Shown here in pieces: positions 6,389 through 12,960 of a stretch of 52,808 bases of DNA. Position numbers and translations under genes: made by a program. Below the pieces are notes generated by a model. That model did not search any database. It worked only from the letters and a program-made list of their open reading frames with translations, and was not told where the DNA came from. Every line of letters begins with the position of its first letter. Positions within the stretch are counted from its first letter, which is position 1. The stretch is taken from sequence record SRR20825006_1683; one strand, 5' to 3'.

Positions 6389-7975
6389 TTAGCTAATCGA
6401 TTCTCGGGTATCTACATTGTTTACTTTTCGGAGGATTCCCAGTAAATTTTCGTTCTTAAGTTCAGACGGCAGTAAGTCATCTGGCCACGATTGAAAAGAA
6501 ACTGGTCGCACCCATCGTTTGATAGAATCTGTTCCAACCGCTGTGAAGCGCGAATCCGTGGACGCTGGATAAGGTCCGCCGTGCAACATAGAAGGACATA
6601 CTTCAACACCTGTAGGTACTCCATTAAAAATGATTCTTCCCACCCGATCTTTGAGTGCTTCCACCAAATCTCTGTTCTCTGCCAATTCTTCCTCAGTGGA
6701 TAAAATCGTTCCTGTAAGTTGACCTTCCAGTTGATGCAAAATCTCTCGTAACTCTGAATGATCTTTACAACGAACGATCAGCGAAAACGGTCCAAAAACC
6801 TCTTGATGCAAGTTTGGATTCTCTAAAAATGTCTTTCCGTCGACTGAAGCAACCGCTTGACGTGCGAAATTTGTTTCAACCTCACCTTCAAATGTTCCAA
6901 GAACACTGACACCGTTTTGTTGCGTTAACTTTTCCTTTCCAGCAGAATAATTCGCTTCGATATTCGGATGAAGCATACAGTTCGGTGAAATTTGTACAAT
7001 CTTCTCGGCCAACTGCGTTTGAAAAGTCGTTAAATGATCGCTTTCTATTCCGAGTATCAATCCAGGATTTGTACAAAACTGACCCGTTCCAAGCGTAATT
7101 GATCCCGCATAAGTCGAAGCCGCTTCGTCTAAATGATTTTCTAAATATGCTGGTAAAATCACCACAGGATTGATACTTCCCATTTCAGCAAAAACTGGAA
7201 TAGGTTCTTTCCGCTCCGCCGCCATATCGTAAAGCGCTCTTCCGCCTTTAATACTTCCCGTAAAACCAACCCCTTTAATCATCTGGTGTTTTACCAATTG
7301 CTTCCCAACTTCAATTCCGCTGCTGTTCAGGTGAGAAAATACTCCATTTGGCATTCCCGTTTTCTGCGCTGCTTCAATCACCGCTGAAGCTACCAACTCG
7401 GAAGTACCAGCGTGCATTGGATGCGATTTTACAATTACTGGACAACCCGCAGCGAGCGCACTTGCAGTATCACCACCCGCCGTTGAATACGCTAACGGAA
7501 AATTACTCGCTCCGAAAACGGCTATTGGACCAATTCCAACATTCATTTTTCTTAAATCAGGTTTTGGAGCTGGAGCTCGGTCTGGCAATGCTGTATCAAT
7601 TCTAGCTTCTACCCATGATCCTTCGCGCAATAATTCAGCGAACCCTCTAAGCTGACCGAGTGTTCTTCCTCGTTCACCTCTTGCCCTCCCGTCTGGTAAT
7701 CCCGATTCGGCACAATACAAGTCAATTAACTCATCTCCCAATTCCTCGATTTCCTCCGCAATCGTGTCCAAAAAAATTGCTTTTTGAGCATTAGAGACAC
7801 TTTTGTATTGCCAAAATGCTTGATGTGCGAGTTCAACCGCTTCATTCACTTCCGTTTCTGAGGCTTCTGTGAAAAGCGTTGGGTTCTCTTGATTTTTTAG
7901 TGGATTTATTGTTCGAAACGTGATCGTTCCTTCTGCTTTTAATTCGTTTCCGATATAATTTTTTCCTGTGAGCAT
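6389..7975 (-). CDS. Alpha-ketoglutarate semialdehyde dehydrogenase (aldehyde dehydrogenase family)
   Basis: FGASNFPLA, FTGS, EMGSINP, GQFCTNPG, EVFGP and HGGPYPAS motifs. Confidence 0.9.
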   Translation of the reverse strand: MLTGKNYIGNELKAEGTITFRTINPLKNQENPTLFTEASETEVNEAVELAHQAFWQYKSVSNAQKAIFLDTIAEEIEELGDELIDLYCAESGLPDGRARGERGRTLGQLRGFAELLREGSWVEARIDTALPDRAPAPKPDLRKMNVGIGPIAVFGASNFPLAYSTAGGDTASALAAGCPVIVKSHPMHAGTSELVASAVIEAAQKTGMPNGVFSHLNSSGIEVGKQLVKHQMIKGVGFTGSIKGGRALYDMAAERKEPIPVFAEMGSINPVVILPAYLENHLDEAASTYAGSITLGTGQFCTNPGLILGIESDHLTTFQTQLAEKIVQISPNCMLHPNIEANYSAGKEKLTQQNGVSVLGTFEGEVETNFARQAVASVDGKTFLENPNLHQEVFGPFSLIVRCKDHSELREILHQLEGQLTGTILSTEEELAENRDLVEALKDRVGRIIFNGVPTGVEVCPSMLHGGPYPASTDSRFTAVGTDSIKRWVRPVSFQSWPDDLLPSELKNENLLGILRKVNNVDTRESIS

Positions 7976-7978
7976 ACC

Positions 7979-8884
7979 TTAAAAATTTGGTAACGTTGGT
8001 CGATTTTGGATCCCGTGTTGAATAATATCAAGTACACGCGCTCGTTCCTCACCGATTAAATTAAGTCGTGGAGCACGCACTTGTTCAGTTCCCAAACCAG
8101 TTGCTACTTCGGCCAACTTTATGTTTTGTACTAATTTACTGTTAATGTCTAACTCTAGCAATGGCAAAAACCAACGATAGATTGCTCGCGCTTCTTCTAT
8201 TCTTCCCTGTTTCACCAGTTCGTAAATCGCCACGGTTTCTTTCGGAAATGCACACACCAATCCAGCAACCCAGCCGTCGGCGCCCATTACCAAACTCTCA
8301 AGCGCAAGGGTGTCCACTCCTGACAAAATCTTTATTCGATCGCCAAAACGATTTTTCATTCGTGTAGTATTCGAAACATCTCTTGTCGATTCCTTCACTG
8401 CTTGAATATTGTCGCACTTAATCAATTCCTCGAACATGTCTAGCGTAACTTCAATTCCGTAATCGATTGGATTATTGTACACCATAATTGGCAATTCCGT
8501 AGCGTTAGCAACCTCTTTAAAATACGTCATTGTTTCCCGCGCATCGGCTTTGTACCTCATTGGAGGAAGCATCATCAATCCATTTGCGCCATCCTCTTCC
8601 GTCATTCGCACAGCTTCTTTTGCTCCTTTCGTAGACTGCTCAGCAATATTGATAATTACAGGAAGCTTTCCTTGCACACATTCTACTGCACTTCGAACCA
8701 GCGTTCTTTTCTCTTCCATTTCCAAAGTGCTTGCTTCGCCAAGTGTTCCTCCCAAAATAATTCCATGAACCCCAGCGTCCATTTGCGCTTCAATATTTTT
8801 TTGAAACATATTCAAATCCAACTGATCATCTGTACTGAACTTTGTTGTAACCGCTGGCATTACGCCTTTCCATTCTATTTTCAT
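7979..8884 (-). CDS. Dihydrodipicolinate synthase family protein, probable 1-pyrroline-4-hydroxy-2-carboxylate deaminase
   Basis: GTLGE, YNNP and Schiff-base Lys in AVKES; first gene of the hydroxyproline operon. Confidence 0.85.
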   Translation of the reverse strand: MKIEWKGVMPAVTTKFSTDDQLDLNMFQKNIEAQMDAGVHGIILGGTLGEASTLEMEEKRTLVRSAVECVQGKLPVIINIAEQSTKGAKEAVRMTEEDGANGLMMLPPMRYKADARETMTYFKEVANATELPIMVYNNPIDYGIEVTLDMFEELIKCDNIQAVKESTRDVSNTTRMKNRFGDRIKILSGVDTLALESLVMGADGWVAGLVCAFPKETVAIYELVKQGRIEEARAIYRWFLPLLELDINSKLVQNIKLAEVATGLGTEQVRAPRLNLIGEERARVLDIIQHGIQNRPTLPNF

Positions 8885-8903
8885 CTGCTCATTCTGTTTG
8901 AAT

Positions 8904-8974
8904 CAAAATTAACGGAAACGACTTGCTCATAAAAGCGGCTTCTTATCCAATTTTAATACTTTATTATCCCAATT
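8904..8974. promoter_or_regulatory. Hydroxyproline operon promoter and candidate AraC direct repeats
   Basis: TAATTTTG on the minus strand at 8904-8911; TTATCCAATT at 8943 and TTATCCCAATT at 8964, 21 bp apart. Confidence 0.5.
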
Positions 8975-9016
8975 AGATGTATTTTTAAACGATATAAGCA
9001 AATAAACTATCTTTTA

Positions 9017-9853
9017 ATGAAGGCACTTTCGTTCAAAATTCCAAAGCCCGAGCACAAAGCGTTGTTATTTCAAAAGGATAATGACAGGATTTTTTACGAT
9101 CGCTTGCATCAACACGAGGAAATTCAACTATCGCTCATTCTATCAGGAGAAGGAGATTTAGTTGCGGGTGACCGTGTACTTCGTTATTCGGCTGGGTCGA
9201 TTTTTATTCTTGGGAGTTACCTGCCGCACTTTTTTAAGTCCGACACAACCGTTTCTGAACATTCTGAGATGCTAACACTTTTTTTCACCCGAGCTTCTTT
9301 TGGTTCGTTCAGCGCATTTGATGAAATTTCAGAACTTGCTCCGTTGTTGGAAGAAATTTCGGTTGGAATTGAGGTGCTTTCTAACAAATCTGCCATTCAC
9401 ACTATTTTCGCTCAGGTTGAACACTGCACAGATTTTGAACGATTGATTCATTTTTTGTCCATTCTGAAACTCATTCTTACTGCTGAAAGGCGGTCGCTAT
9501 CCTCTTCGGTTCAATCTAAAATGATGAGTGAAATAGAAGGAGAACGGATGCAGCGGGTAATGGATTATGCGATGAATCATTTTAAGGAATCGGTTTCTTT
9601 GGATGAAGTGGCGCAGCAAGCGAGCATGACTCGAAATTCCTTTTGTCGTTACTTTAAGCAGCGAACGAATAAGTCATTTTTTCAGTTTTTAAATGAGGTG
9701 CGTTTGGAGCATGCGAGTACCTTACTGCAAAAAGATGCAGAGCAACCAATTGATGAAATAGCAGAACTTTCGGGATTCAGGAATTTATCGAATTTCAATA
9801 GACAATTCCGTGCGTATCGTGGAATGACACCAAGGGAATGGCGGAAGGGGTGA
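9017..9853 (+). CDS. AraC-family transcriptional regulator
   Basis: N-terminal cupin (LHQHEEIQL); C-terminal double HTH (IAELSGFRNLSNFNRQF...GMTPREWRK). Confidence 0.93.
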   Translation: MKALSFKIPKPEHKALLFQKDNDRIFYDRLHQHEEIQLSLILSGEGDLVAGDRVLRYSAGSIFILGSYLPHFFKSDTTVSEHSEMLTLFFTRASFGSFSAFDEISELAPLLEEISVGIEVLSNKSAIHTIFAQVEHCTDFERLIHFLSILKLILTAERRSLSSSVQSKMMSEIEGERMQRVMDYAMNHFKESVSLDEVAQQASMTRNSFCRYFKQRTNKSFFQFLNEVRLEHASTLLQKDAEQPIDEIAELSGFRNLSNFNRQFRAYRGMTPREWRKG

Positions 9854-9867
9854 AAATACGAAACTTT

Positions 9868-10533
9868 TCACACTTCCTCCAAGTCAAGCACTCCGTTTTT
9901 CAGGCAAAAAATGATCAATCCTACTGTATTCTTAGTATTTGTCTTTTGGAATAAATTCTTTTTATGTCCTTCAATGGTGCGTTGACTCAAAAAGAGTTTT
10001 TCGGAGATCTCAGCGGCTGTATATTCTTTACAGATCAACTCCAACACTTCCAATTCTCGGGTTGTAAACACGGTATTGTTTCCGAGAGAGACTGAGGTTC
10101 GCTTTTTTACTACCAAACCGTTTCGCATAATTCGAATAACGAAGTCATCGTAATAATAACCGTGTTCAGTCACCGATTCTATCGCGAGCAATAATTGATC
10201 GATGGTTGAATTTTTCAATAAATAGCCGTGTGCTCCTTCTTCGATTAGGTGGAGAATAAGCGCTTCATCTTCGTGCATAGACAAAATGAGCACTTTCACA
10301 TCGGGAAATTCTATCCGCATGTGTTTCATTGCCTCAATACCATCCATTTTTGGCATGTCCAAATCGAGGAAAATAACATCGGGTATTGTTCCGCGTCTCA
10401 ATGTTTCAAGGAGTTCCTCTCCATTTGAAGCTGTAAACTGCACCTCCAGATTAGCAGACATTCCAAGTAAAGAACTCAATCCGTGCAAGAAGAGTGCATG
10501 ATCATCTACAATAGCAAGTTGAGTCACGTTCAT
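9868..10533 (-). CDS. NarL/LuxR-family response regulator
   Basis: Receiver domain (IVDDH, FLDLDMPKMDG, GYLLK) plus LuxR HTH (TTRELEVL...EISEKLFLSQRTIEGH). Confidence 0.95.
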   Translation of the reverse strand: MNVTQLAIVDDHALFLHGLSSLLGMSANLEVQFTASNGEELLETLRRGTIPDVIFLDLDMPKMDGIEAMKHMRIEFPDVKVLILSMHEDEALILHLIEEGAHGYLLKNSTIDQLLLAIESVTEHGYYYDDFVIRIMRNGLVVKKRTSVSLGNNTVFTTRELEVLELICKEYTAAEISEKLFLSQRTIEGHKKNLFQKTNTKNTVGLIIFCLKNGVLDLEEV

Positions 10534-10534
10534 G

Positions 10535-11311
10535 TTAGTTGGATTGAGGCGTTAAACAAATGGAAGTTCCTTTAATTGAGTTTTCAATATCCAATTTAAA
10601 GTTGATCATCTCTGCACGACTTTGCATGTTTAGTAATCCTAAGCCCGTTTGATTTTCATCAATAAATCCGGTTCCGTTGTCTTTAATGAAAAGTTCGAAA
10701 CCACCTTCTTTGGGAGTTAAGCGAATCATAATTTCAGAGCAATTGGCATGTTTAAAACAGTTAGCTATGGCTTCTTGAAAAATACGATAGGCGTGGATCT
10801 CTATTTTTGGAGAAAAGCGTGTTTTTCCAAGTGTATAAATTTCATTGCGGGAGATTGGATCTCTTGGCAGTTTCATTAAATAGTCTTGAATCGCGGCTTG
10901 TAACCCCATTTTTATTAAAACGGGTGGTTGAAGTTGATGACTTATTCTGCGAATTGAACCAACAATATCGTCAATCACTTGAATAGACATTTGTTGTGGA
11001 GAAGGTTCTCGACTCTCAGTAACCTGGGGTTTCTCACTACTTAAATACATTTTTGCCAACGCCAATTGCGCTCCAATTTCATCGTGAAGATCTGCAGCAA
11101 ACTTCTTTCTGTCTTCCTCTACCGCAGAAAGAGAAGCATGAATCAAAGATTGCTGATGCTCGATTTTAATCTCCTGAAGTTGCTCACGTTGTGCAGCCAA
11201 TCGTTTTTGATAAATCAGCACAAACAGAATAATTGCGACTGCTAACACAAAAGCGAGAAGCATTCCTGCGACAATTAACTGCGCGAAGTCGTTTTCGGAC
11301 GGATTTTCCAT
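10535..11311 (-). CDS. HisKA_3 (NarX-type) histidine kinase with one TM helix and no sensor domain
   Basis: H-box DLHDEIGAQL, N-box QEAIANCFKHA, DNGTGF and GLGLLNMQSRAE. Confidence 0.92.
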   Translation of the reverse strand: MENPSENDFAQLIVAGMLLAFVLAVAIILFVLIYQKRLAAQREQLQEIKIEHQQSLIHASLSAVEEDRKKFAADLHDEIGAQLALAKMYLSSEKPQVTESREPSPQQMSIQVIDDIVGSIRRISHQLQPPVLIKMGLQAAIQDYLMKLPRDPISRNEIYTLGKTRFSPKIEIHAYRIFQEAIANCFKHANCSEIMIRLTPKEGGFELFIKDNGTGFIDENQTGLGLLNMQSRAEMINFKLDIENSIKGTSICLTPQSN

Positions 11312-11937
11312 AAACCAATGCTAAAAAGTGAATAATAAACAGTCATAAAAAACAAGTGTACAGACCATACCCAAATGCCCAATTCGCTTGAGGCAGAAAG
11401 AATAGATCGACTGAAAACAAAGAGAAGTGTAATTGCAGAAAAGTAAACCAATACCGCAGCGTTGATCCAGAAAAGTGGAAGATCAATTAACCTAGATACG
11501 GTCATTGTTTTCATTATTCTTCCCCAAGTCAGCAAAGAGAGCGTAATAAGAATCACGCATTCCATCGTCCGTGTGATATCGTTCATTTCGAAAGGGGAAT
11601 GAATTAAGATACTATCCACGAGTGAGAAGACTACAAAACCAATCCCAAGGATTCCAATTATGATTTTTAGTACACCAGAAAACTGCTCTCGGAAATACAT
11701 TAGGATCAGGAACAATTCTACTGGAACGTATAGATGAGAGATAAACAGATTGTTCAACTGATTTCTCCAAAGGGCGCTTGAGATTACTTCGGCAAGCAGC
11801 GAAATCCCAACGAGCACGATGAGCAAACGTTCTTGTTTGTTTGCAAATCGAAATCGCATGAGACCAACACTGAAGGCTATCAGAATAGGCAAAAACGCGC
11901 AAGATGCGATTATGTGAATTACATTAGAAAGTGGCAT
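11275..11937 (-). CDS. Multi-pass (~7 TM) membrane protein, candidate receptor subunit
   Basis: About seven hydrophobic segments; NNLFISHLY and FWINAAVLVYF; overlaps the kinase start by 37 nt. Confidence 0.8.
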   Translation of the reverse strand: MPLSNVIHIIASCAFLPILIAFSVGLMRFRFANKQERLLIVLVGISLLAEVISSALWRNQLNNLFISHLYVPVELFLILMYFREQFSGVLKIIIGILGIGFVVFSLVDSILIHSPFEMNDITRTMECVILITLSLLTWGRIMKTMTVSRLIDLPLFWINAAVLVYFSAITLLFVFSRSILSASSELGIWVWSVHLFFMTVYYSLFSIGLWKIRPKTTSRS

Positions 11938-11956
11938 GGTTAGGTTATGCTCTTAA

Positions 11957-12343
11957 TTATGACTGTTTGTAAAGAGGGCTCGTTCCGCACGTATTTGGAC
12001 AAGGAAATGCAACGTCATAAATTCCACTTGCTTCTGAGTCTGGATCAATAATATCTGCATCGTCTCTATCTACACCAACCACCAAAATACTAATGTATTC
12101 TGTGCGCACTCCATTTTCTTCACTCACCTCAACTGCGGGATAAACTCGGACATTAATTACTTCCGGGTTTGAAAAAATTTGTTCGAAGTCAACCTTACTA
12201 AGTCTGAAAGATTTTGGGAAAGCTTCGTTCGTTGTTGGATTTATTCTGGATTGCCATGCAAATGTTCTGGCTTGTGCATCGTGCAGAGGAACAGCGTGTA
12301 TGGTTCCTTTGACTGGATTCTGTGGTTTACTCATTTTCTTCAT
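11957..12343 (-). CDS. Small hypothetical protein with a C-terminal YDxxxPCPxxC motif
   Basis: Ends GIYDVAFPCPNTCGTSPLYKQS; first gene of the four-gene cassette; start at 12343 or 12334. Confidence 0.8.
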   Translation of the reverse strand: MKKMSKPQNPVKGTIHAVPLHDAQARTFAWQSRINPTTNEAFPKSFRLSKVDFEQIFSNPEVINVRVYPAVEVSEENGVRTEYISILVVGVDRDDADIIDPDSEASGIYDVAFPCPNTCGTSPLYKQS

Positions 12344-12425
12344 ATTTTGGTTCAATGTAAATAAAATCCTTTATCAGAGCCCAACTACTGTTAAAATCAG
12401 GGGAAAACACGCCCTAGTTTCGGGA

Positions 12426-12490
12426 TTTACGCAAATCGTAAAAAGGATTAAAATTACGCTGTTTTTAGGCCTCAATCTGCCCTAGGTTTG
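12426..12490. promoter_or_regulatory. Inverted repeat and -7 element in the divergent intergenic region
   Basis: TTTACG-caaat-CGTAAA at 12426-12442; TAGGTTTG on the plus strand at 12483-12490. Confidence 0.4.
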
Positions 12491-12600: not shown

Positions 12601-12960
12601 ATGTCACAAACAATGTATTTACAATCGGTAATTTGCCTCAACACATCAGAATCAGGGCACGACGAAGTCTACGTAAAGTATAGTATTGACGGAGGATCAA
12701 CAACACGTTTCCCAAGTTCAAGTGCTGATCCTAACTATAATTCAATGAACAGAGATGATAACAATCCTTGGACAACGAATATTAAGTTACAATTCAATAG
12801 TAGTGTACTTATTGAACTTTGGGATAGCGATACAGGCGGAGATGATCCACTTGGAAGTTATACGTATTCTACAGGAGATGCTCCTTACACAGAATCACAA
12901 TTAGTTACCAATACAAATGGAGCGCGCTACGTGCTTGTTACTGGACCTTCTGTAAAGTAA
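12601..12960 (+). CDS. Stand-alone C2-domain-like protein
   Basis: GHDEVYVK and IELWDSDTGGDDPLGS resemble the two Asp-rich Ca2+-binding loops of C2 domains; A-rich translation initiation region; own terminator. Confidence 0.65.
   Translation: MSQTMYLQSVICLNTSESGHDEVYVKYSIDGGSTTRFPSSSADPNYNSMNRDDNNPWTTNIKLQFNSSVLIELWDSDTGGDDPLGSYTYSTGDAPYTESQLVTNTNGARYVLVTGPSVK

Follow-up and report, generated by a model that had tools for sequence, protein, structure and literature searches.

An unannotated four-gene cassette of Bacteroidota, best read as two-component signaling through a new type of two-protein input module

Introduction

How a histidine kinase that has no sensing domain of its own receives its signal is the question raised by a cassette of four genes in the sequence record SRR20825006_1683. 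The DNA analyzed is a stretch of 52,808 nucleotides (nt), called the window here, and all positions are numbered from its first letter. The cassette encodes, in order of transcription, a small protein with a cysteine-containing tail, a seven-transmembrane (7TM) protein, a HisKA_3 histidine kinase, and a NarL/LuxR-type response regulator. The best reading of this arrangement is a two-component system whose input module, made of two proteins, is of a new kind. The module itself is real and unannotated, and it occurs widely among the Bacteroidota sampled. That the four genes form a vertically conserved two-component operon whose first two products are a portable input module for the sensor-less kinase, and not the source of a released peptide, is a proposal that we hold to be evenly balanced between right and wrong. 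The wider proposal is more tentative and falls somewhat short of that balance: it sees in these modules an undescribed class of multisubunit receptors, in which a ligand sensor shaped like a G-protein-coupled receptor (GPCR) and a CPxxC-tail cofactor would drive at least three classes of kinase, with several paralogous modules per genome.

Gene Anatomy of the Cassette

The cassette consists of four consecutive open reading frames (ORFs), all co-oriented on the minus strand in the ORF listing of the window. Their coordinates, with the junctions read, give a 19-nt spacer between the first and the second gene (11938-11956), a 37-nt overlap between the second and the third (11275-11311), and a 1-nt spacer between the third and the fourth (10534). 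This is the tight packing that had been described by a preceding sequence-only reading of the same DNA, whose account of the anatomy proved correct in every particular.

Gene 1 (11957..12343, minus strand) encodes a leaderless protein of 128 amino acids (aa), a member of an unannotated family whose domain is referred to as the “PCPxxC-tail domain.” The ORF also has an alternative TTG start (11957-12355, minus strand), the ATG at 12343 being the one that gives 128 aa. A longer N-terminus or a signal peptide is excluded because stop codons lie directly upstream of the TTG. The protein is, as had been supposed, soluble, with no hydrophobic segment in its hydrophobicity profile, and its only two cysteines are located in the tail. 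These are residues 115 and 119, inside IYDVAFPCPNTC / IYDVAFPCPNTCGTSPLY. By translation, the segment IYDVAFPCPNTCGTSPLY (residues 108-125) is encoded at 11969..12022 on the minus strand, and within it the codons of Cys115 and Cys119 occupy 11999-12001 and 11987-11989, respectively.

Gene 2 (11275..11937, minus strand) encodes a stand-alone seven-helix membrane protein of 220 aa. Gene 3 (10535..11311, minus strand) encodes the HisKA_3 histidine kinase of 258 aa, whose ATG lies 37 nt inside gene 2, among the final codons of the 7TM gene. In the kinase, the only hydrophobic segment is a single transmembrane (TM) helix at residues 13-31, and the N-terminal tail ahead of it counts 12 residues, in agreement with the approximately 10 residues first estimated. 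HisKA_3 (PF07730) is matched at residues 68-132 with 27.2 bits against a cut-off of 24, and HATPase_c (PF02518) at residues 171-255 with 37.4 bits against a cut-off of 26.4. Gene 4 (9868..10533, minus strand) encodes the NarL/LuxR-type response regulator of 221 aa, which contains the domains Response_reg (PF00072, 92.7 bits) and GerE (PF00196, 53.7 bits). By the domain content of both, genes 3 and 4 are a two-component system of the HisKA_3/NarL type. No exporter, protease, or modifying enzyme was found in the cassette by its ORF list, Pfam, or NCBIfam.

Linkage and Gene Order across Bacteroidota

The coherence of the cassette was assessed from its recurrence in other genomes. A close-alignment scan with one genome per species returned nine loci, which belong to Crocinitomicaceae, other Flavobacteriales, Kordia, and unclassified Bacteroidota. 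In all nine, a 7TM homologue stands directly after the small gene. A HisKA_3 kinase is third in eight of them, and the ninth contig ends within the 7TM gene. The regulator follows the kinase on the same strand in six loci and on the opposite strand in one, and two contigs end earlier. Over eight pairs, identity to the window amounts to 45-51% for the small protein, 38-51% for the 7TM protein, 37-51% for the kinase, and 52-57% for the regulator, which are values of distant relatives and not of strains. The four genes diverge at similar rates, and the input genes show no excess variability. The 7TM/kinase overlap has the identical length of 37 nt in the window and in locus L001 and suggests coupled translation.

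A broader sample comprised 401 Bacteroidota genomes, of which 58 contain the small family and 94 the 7TM family, with up to seven 7TM matches in one genome. Thirty loci of this sample were fetched around small-protein matches; a 7TM profile hit lies directly downstream in 28 of them, and in the other two the downstream position is taken by a polytopic ORF of about 222 aa that the profile does not detect. By coordinates, 82 of the 93 small-protein matches are followed by a 7TM match within 1.5 kb on the same strand, a lower bound, since the comparison used the 150 7TM matches listed out of 206. The remaining 11 comprise seven that lie upstream of weaker 7TM hits, two at contig ends, one situated between the 7TM gene and the kinase gene of its module, and one about 1 kb from a complete module. 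As a result, at least 89 of the 93 small-protein homologues are positioned directly upstream of a 7TM homologue.

The reverse check started from the 7TM protein. Seventeen loci were fetched around 7TM matches that lacked a small-protein match, and in ten of these (L069, L070, L071, L072, L073, L075, L080, L082, L083, and L084) the ORF ahead of the 7TM gene closes with a CPxxC-like tail that the profile scored low or missed. Over every locus fetched, a 7TM hit follows 63 of the 68 distinct small ORFs. Such a layout goes far beyond chance, as unrelated genomes repeat this order of genes. The linkage of small-protein homologues to 7TM, kinase, and regulator genes, on which the initial proposal depended, therefore holds in the nine close loci, in the 30 fetched ones, in the 93 matches, and in the 68 ORFs alike. 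The window itself carries every element by which the module is defined, namely, a small gene with a CPxxC tail, a stand-alone seven-helix gene of about 215 aa, and a single-helix kinase.

Neither of the two input proteins could be placed in a described family. Pfam and NCBIfam give no match at E ≤ 1 for the small and the 7TM protein of the window, the 89 small and the 44 7TM aligned members have no recurring Pfam family, and PADLOC gives no match for either protein. Sequence profile searches against the PDB returned one chance-level hit for the small protein (alignment A2) and none for the 7TM protein (alignment A3), and by fold, too, neither protein was matched to a PDB entry. In a language-model atlas, both proteins are found among 30 unnamed, mostly Bacteroidota clusters, and all the named members that were looked up are labelled “hypothetical protein.” No published description of the module was found in open-access full text by architecture, motif, or accession. 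As for phage copies, tblastn of the small and 7TM proteins against 50,697 phage records gave no match, and pattern scans of viral contigs with alignments A1 and A5 gave no confirmed relative; these searches covered close relatives and fixed patterns only.

Exchange of Kinases behind the 7TM Gene

The evidence that bears most directly on the role of the first two genes comes from what stands behind them. The product encoded next after the 7TM gene invariably opens with one TM helix, but its kinase class varies. A HisKA_3 kinase with a NarL-type regulator is present in 22 of the 30 loci. A PAS-HisKA kinase is found in L100, a PAS-HisKA hybrid kinase with a receiver domain in L098 and L077, and a HisKA_2 kinase with a LytTR regulator in L074, a locus without a small gene. 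The 7TM gene accompanies, in this way, single-helix kinases of three classes. The transmitter class is interchangeable, and the upstream pair is therefore a portable unit that behaves as an input module.

Moreover, one small gene is combined with two or three tandem 7TM genes and one kinase in L099, L100, and L101. The earlier suggestion that a separate 7TM protein serves as the input to the sensor-less kinase is favored by comparative genomics, through the stand-alone ORFs, the tandem 7TM genes, and the swapping of kinase classes.

The Small PCPxxC-Tail Protein

The small protein of the window has seven close relatives, among which the tail SGIYDxAxPCPNTCGxSPL is invariant. A profile of these relatives, searched against 1.84 billion representatives, found 575 proteins at E ≤ 1e-3 and 94 at E ≤ 1e-10. 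Genes of the PCPxxC kind next to kinases in other Bacteroidota, which the sequence-only reading had pointed to, accordingly exist, and the 575 are representative clusters. The motif, whose conservation had been named beforehand as a refutation test, is conserved. Toward the end of the domain, 151 of the 156 members examined have a C-x(2-4)-C pair, nearly always as PCPxxC followed by (D/G)xxSPL. C115 and P116 never vary in alignment A2, which comprises 89 sequences, and P114, C119, D110, and L124 are each conserved in at least 90%. The tail is the segment of lowest entropy, with a mean column value of 1.51 bits over residues 108-125, compared with 2.4-3.2 bits in every other segment.

The small protein is predicted as a confidently folded domain, with a predicted local distance difference test score (pLDDT) of 89.2. 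Relatives with two domains in tandem are common, and in these the first tail sits internally. One further representative, P0125, is a fragment of 156 aa in which the small-protein domain runs into the N-terminus of a 7TM protein; as a lone fragment, it was not counted as a fusion.

The Seven-Helix Protein

The product of the overlapping gene had been described as having about seven TM segments, and this is confirmed by seven hydrophobic peaks and by the predicted fold. The prediction, made from a 44-sequence alignment, consists of seven long helices, with a pLDDT of 92.5 and a predicted template modeling score of 0.88. The protein has 11 relatives of 214-223 aa. The alignment (A3) includes the ORFs of L031 and L032, which the first 7TM profile missed and which were added on position alone, so that their later matches are circular. 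Across the 150 matches listed of 206, the 7TM ORFs span 205-304 aa and are always a separate polypeptide.

A topology with the N-terminus outside and the C-terminus inside is supported by lysine plus arginine counts in all 44 aligned members. With this orientation, the conserved polar residues N63, H68, Y70, E74, N119, W191, and N/H194 would be placed in the outer half of the bundle, and the cluster looks like an outward-facing pocket on the periplasmic side.

Foldseek comparison of the 7TM model returned generic seven-helix bundles, with microbial rhodopsins at TMq 0.58-0.65 and GPCRs at 0.4-0.55, all at E > 0.02. Identification as a microbial rhodopsin was rejected, as the Schiff-base lysine of helix 7 is absent: no lysine occurs at 186-209 in the window protein, and the lysine fraction at 190-209 is 0-0.02 over the 44 sequences. 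The protein was likewise rejected as a 7TMR-DISM receptor; no match to that model was obtained for the window protein at E ≤ 1 or for the 44 members at E ≤ 0.1, and the open frames measure 205-304 aa. In one locus (L092, 3439-4096), the 7TM gene is split into ORFs of 58 and 137 aa, which could be a frameshift or a decaying copy.

Proposed Mechanism and Its Weak Points

In the mechanism that we propose, the small and 7TM proteins would control the single-helix kinase in trans. The stand-alone seven-helix protein would be the membrane sensor subunit, perceiving a periplasmic or membrane-borne cue and, through intramembrane contact, conveying its state to the one TM helix of the kinase. The 37-nt overlap would couple the 7TM and kinase genes in translation. 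The PCPxxC-tail protein would act as a stoichiometric accessory, a co-sensor or coupling subunit of the receptor, and not as a released peptide. Its invariant Cys-Pro-x-x-Cys pair is the likeliest switch and might respond by thiol oxidation, possibly with a disulfide formed from motif to motif, or by metal binding. The kinase would then phosphorylate the NarL/LuxR regulator, whose probable targets are a conserved repeat ahead of the operon and a divergent gene for a 119-aa protein (both described below). The physical contacts, the identity of the stimulus-binding subunit, the chemistry of the Cys pair, and the regulator targets are what we infer from the genomic evidence.

Passages of PMC11379947 describe CPXXC motifs in synthetic peptides that pair motif-to-motif upon oxidation. 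A redox or metal switch read by a split receptor-kinase was the second option of the sequence-only reading and comes close to the mechanism proposed here; it is a candidate role for the Cys pair, for which the pairing of synthetic peptides serves as a chemistry lead only. A complex prediction for the small and 7TM proteins scored 0.00 with controls not run and counts neither for nor against binding.

Several observations weigh against the input-module proposal. The Cys pair is not strictly required, because a few family members (P0021, P0082, P0148, and the copies in L071 and L072) have it incomplete or absent. The side of the membrane on which the domain works is also a difficulty. The window copy and 143 of the 156 representatives are free of export signals, whereas the other 13 representatives and 19 of 68 context-verified small proteins bear a signal, lipobox, or anchor at the N-terminus. 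Exported-type small genes also stand directly upstream of 7TM genes with the same inferred topology, and in L087 a leaderless and an anchored copy lie on either side of one 7TM gene. Because part of the family bears such signals, the domain seems to work within the cytoplasm in some modules and outside it in others, or else one of these inferences is wrong; a single model with a fixed side of action fails to cover both the leaderless and the exported copies. The polar cluster of the 7TM protein could equally be a catalytic site. Furthermore, a fused 7TM-kinase form occurs in none of the 150 matches listed of 206, and none was met in a search among longer proteins, which is weak evidence. The usual Rosetta-stone support for a split receptor is missing, because no fused form was found. 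Finally, the contacts between the subunits are something we infer.

Two side observations belong to these subjects. An “850-aa open frame” in genome G370 was considered as a possible fusion and rejected as a read-through of neighboring frames. The paired small genes, one leaderless and the other with a signal or lipobox, flank the 7TM gene in L087 (1875-3364) and also in L088 (2994-4790).

Alternative Explanations

The main rival reading is a feedback brake of the SaePQ kind, which we regard as unlikely. It holds that the small and 7TM proteins are self-induced auxiliaries that bind an intramembrane-sensing kinase and either elicit its phosphatase activity or stabilize it, with the TM helix of the kinase sensing the state of the membrane. 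The saePQRS operon follows the same logic: its regulator and its kinase, which lacks a sensor domain, are accompanied by a small lipoprotein and a polytopic membrane protein. As stated in section 2.5 of PMC5083920 and in a portion of PMC3748130, the ternary complex with SaePQ induces the phosphatase activity of SaeS. Part of the small-protein homologues are lipoproteins as well, and autoinduction would be in keeping with the conserved repeat ahead of gene 1. However, a 7TM protein with a conserved polar cluster inside its bundle, the two- or threefold 7TM genes of some modules, and the pairing with three classes of kinase all fit an input device better than a brake. The brake reading also finds no relation to SaeP or SaeQ in sequence or fold, and no shared Pfam family.

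A second alternative, considerably less probable, makes the 7TM protein an enzyme and the small protein its substrate. The 7TM protein would be an intramembrane protease or transferase, similar to AgrB or to CAAX enzymes, acting on the Cys tail, and the product would control the kinase. Conserved His, Tyr, Glu, and Asn residues in the membrane core, a partner with an invariant Cys-Pro motif, and the strict adjacency of the small and 7TM genes are in its favor, as is the automatic label “lysoplasmalogenase” on one neighboring cluster of the atlas. Yet the window protein matches no membrane enzyme in Pfam and no such match is consistent among the 44 members, the structural neighbors are receptors and rhodopsins, and multiplied 7TM genes and internal tails fit an enzyme-substrate pair poorly.

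The least probable alternative is the one with which the analysis of this locus began, a peptide quorum cassette resembling agr or ComQXPA, in which the Cys tail or the whole small protein would be released or cyclized and sensed outside the cell by the 7TM receptor, which would signal to the kinase; although the layout of signal, receptor, kinase, and regulator is conserved, the conserved 7TM pocket faces outwards in the inferred topology, and part of the small family is exported, this idea was not borne out, as the protein is a folded domain of 128 aa and not a leader with a variable core, the window copy and most representatives are leaderless, the tail is the most conserved segment, which is the opposite of pherotype variation, and lies inside the chain in tandem forms, a single small gene can stand ahead of two or three 7TM genes, the input genes show no excess divergence over the eight pairs, and the cassette has no genes for export or processing.

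Upstream Region and Neighboring Genes

The input-module proposal places the output of the system, in part, in the DNA upstream of gene 1. A candidate operator is located there at 12400..12432 (minus strand), 57-89 nt upstream of the gene, and consists of two CGT(A/G)-containing half-sites about 20 nt apart, GCGTAAATCCC ... GCGTGTTTTCCCC. The block is conserved in all four aligned upstream regions (the window, L001, L002, and L003), whose proteins are only about 45-55% identical, and the repeat has a single occurrence in the window. The regulator would, in this proposal, bind at 12400-12432. A scan of the cassette for sigma-70 promoters and terminators gave results at chance level. The motif TAnnTTTG, which we take to be the Bacteroidota-type -7 motif, has 43 matches against 52 expected, none of them upstream of gene 1.

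On the plus strand, a divergent gene for a protein of 119 aa (12601..12960) is a possible regulated target and may be an output of the system. Its homologues of 116-117 aa lie in the divergent position in the three loci most closely related to the window, at L001 5395-5745, L002 2440-2793, and L003 5381-5734. The 119-aa protein has a weak, sub-threshold C2 match (E 0.009). The gene is absent from the more distant loci examined, and in the Kordia-type loci (L007-L009) the divergent position is held by an unrelated gene of 93-94 aa.

Other genes are found beside the module elsewhere. In L011, L012, L013, L019, L028, L088, and L090, one or two divergent genes by the module, on the upstream side of the small gene, have an N-terminus of the phage-tail-collar type; the Collar domain (PF07484) was confirmed by Pfam for the L011 copy only, and for the other six loci the assignment was made by visual inspection. 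So was that of a phage-tail-sheath-like gene found within a few kb in L090. Immediately ahead of the small gene and on the same strand, L004 (3-5882) encodes a very large protein with SpvB and FG-GAP domains, of the Tc/Rhs-like kind, and L005 (2-2983) has a large partial ORF of the same strand and position. Both loci come from flavobacterial metagenome-assembled genomes.

In the window, the region downstream of the cassette (6389-9853) contains a convergent AraC-type regulator (9017-9853) together with genes that by eye are dihydrodipicolinate-synthase-like and aldehyde-dehydrogenase-like. The genes upstream of the cassette resemble accC, accB, and fabH. The flanking genes are ordinary housekeeping neighbors with no conserved link to the cassette.

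Comparison with Known Systems

The agr and ComQXPA systems combine, in one operon, a small product, one or more membrane proteins, a kinase, and a regulator, and ComP and ComA are of the HisKA_3/NarL type. In both, the kinase polypeptide itself contains the receptor helices, the precursor is variable and of small size, and a processing enzyme is dedicated to it. Quorum peptides are generally short, exported, processed, and variable. The agr system has the membrane peptidase AgrB, the short precursor AgrD, a fused multihelix kinase, and a LytTR regulator. Membership of the cassette in this system was rejected, given the lack of an AgrB match, the folded small protein of 128 aa, the one-helix kinase, and the GerE regulator. 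ComQXPA has the isoprenyl transferase ComQ, the short ComX, and a ComP with 8-10 fused helices; membership was rejected here too, with no prenyl-transferase match in the four genes and the 7TM protein unfused in the 150 matches listed.

Seven-helix membrane sensors that signal within the membrane to a kinase pathway are represented by sensory rhodopsins with their Htr partners and by 7TMR-DISM proteins. The partner of a sensory rhodopsin is a methyl-accepting transducer, whereas the partner of the 7TM protein in the cassette is the kinase itself.

Sensor-less kinases fed by a separately encoded membrane protein are known from Firmicutes, in LiaFSR/VraTSR and BceRS-BceAB. The Lia and Vra systems have, like the cassette, a HisKA_3 kinase and a NarL-type regulator. 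The kinases of the Lia, Vra, and Bce systems have two TM helices, compared with one in the cassette, and these systems are without a CPxxC-tail partner. The accessory proteins are unrelated, since Pfam and NCBIfam give no LiaF or ABC-transporter match among the cassette proteins.

The closest functional analogue is saePQRS of Staphylococcus aureus. Its four genes, like those of the cassette, code for a small auxiliary protein, a polytopic membrane protein, a regulator, and a kinase that lacks a sensing domain. The Sae kinase and regulator belong to the HisKA/OmpR type, and those of the cassette to HisKA_3/NarL. No homology to SaeP or SaeQ was detected as a shared Pfam family, whether in the proteins of the window or, with any consistency, in the 89 and 44 aligned members. 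In the passages of PMC5083920 that treat the Sae system, the lipoprotein SaeP and the membrane protein SaeQ form an auxiliary pair that complexes with the kinase SaeS. The same passages give SaeQ four helices, in contrast to the seven found here, describe SaeP as always a lipoprotein, and place the regulator before the kinase, whereas the kinase precedes the regulator in the cassette.

Sensor-less kinases pose a puzzle that recurs among two-component systems, and in the few cases solved, namely, Sae, Lia, and Bce, accessory membrane proteins supply the input. The two unannotated families described here would be an accessory pair of this kind that is both common and strictly conserved, and both deserve database models, since their named members are all called hypothetical proteins. 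If the 7TM protein is a ligand receptor, these modules would add to the known systems a set of bacterial seven-helix receptors that signal through a separate kinase, and with it a large unexplored sensor repertoire in a phylum that is important in oceans, soils, and guts.

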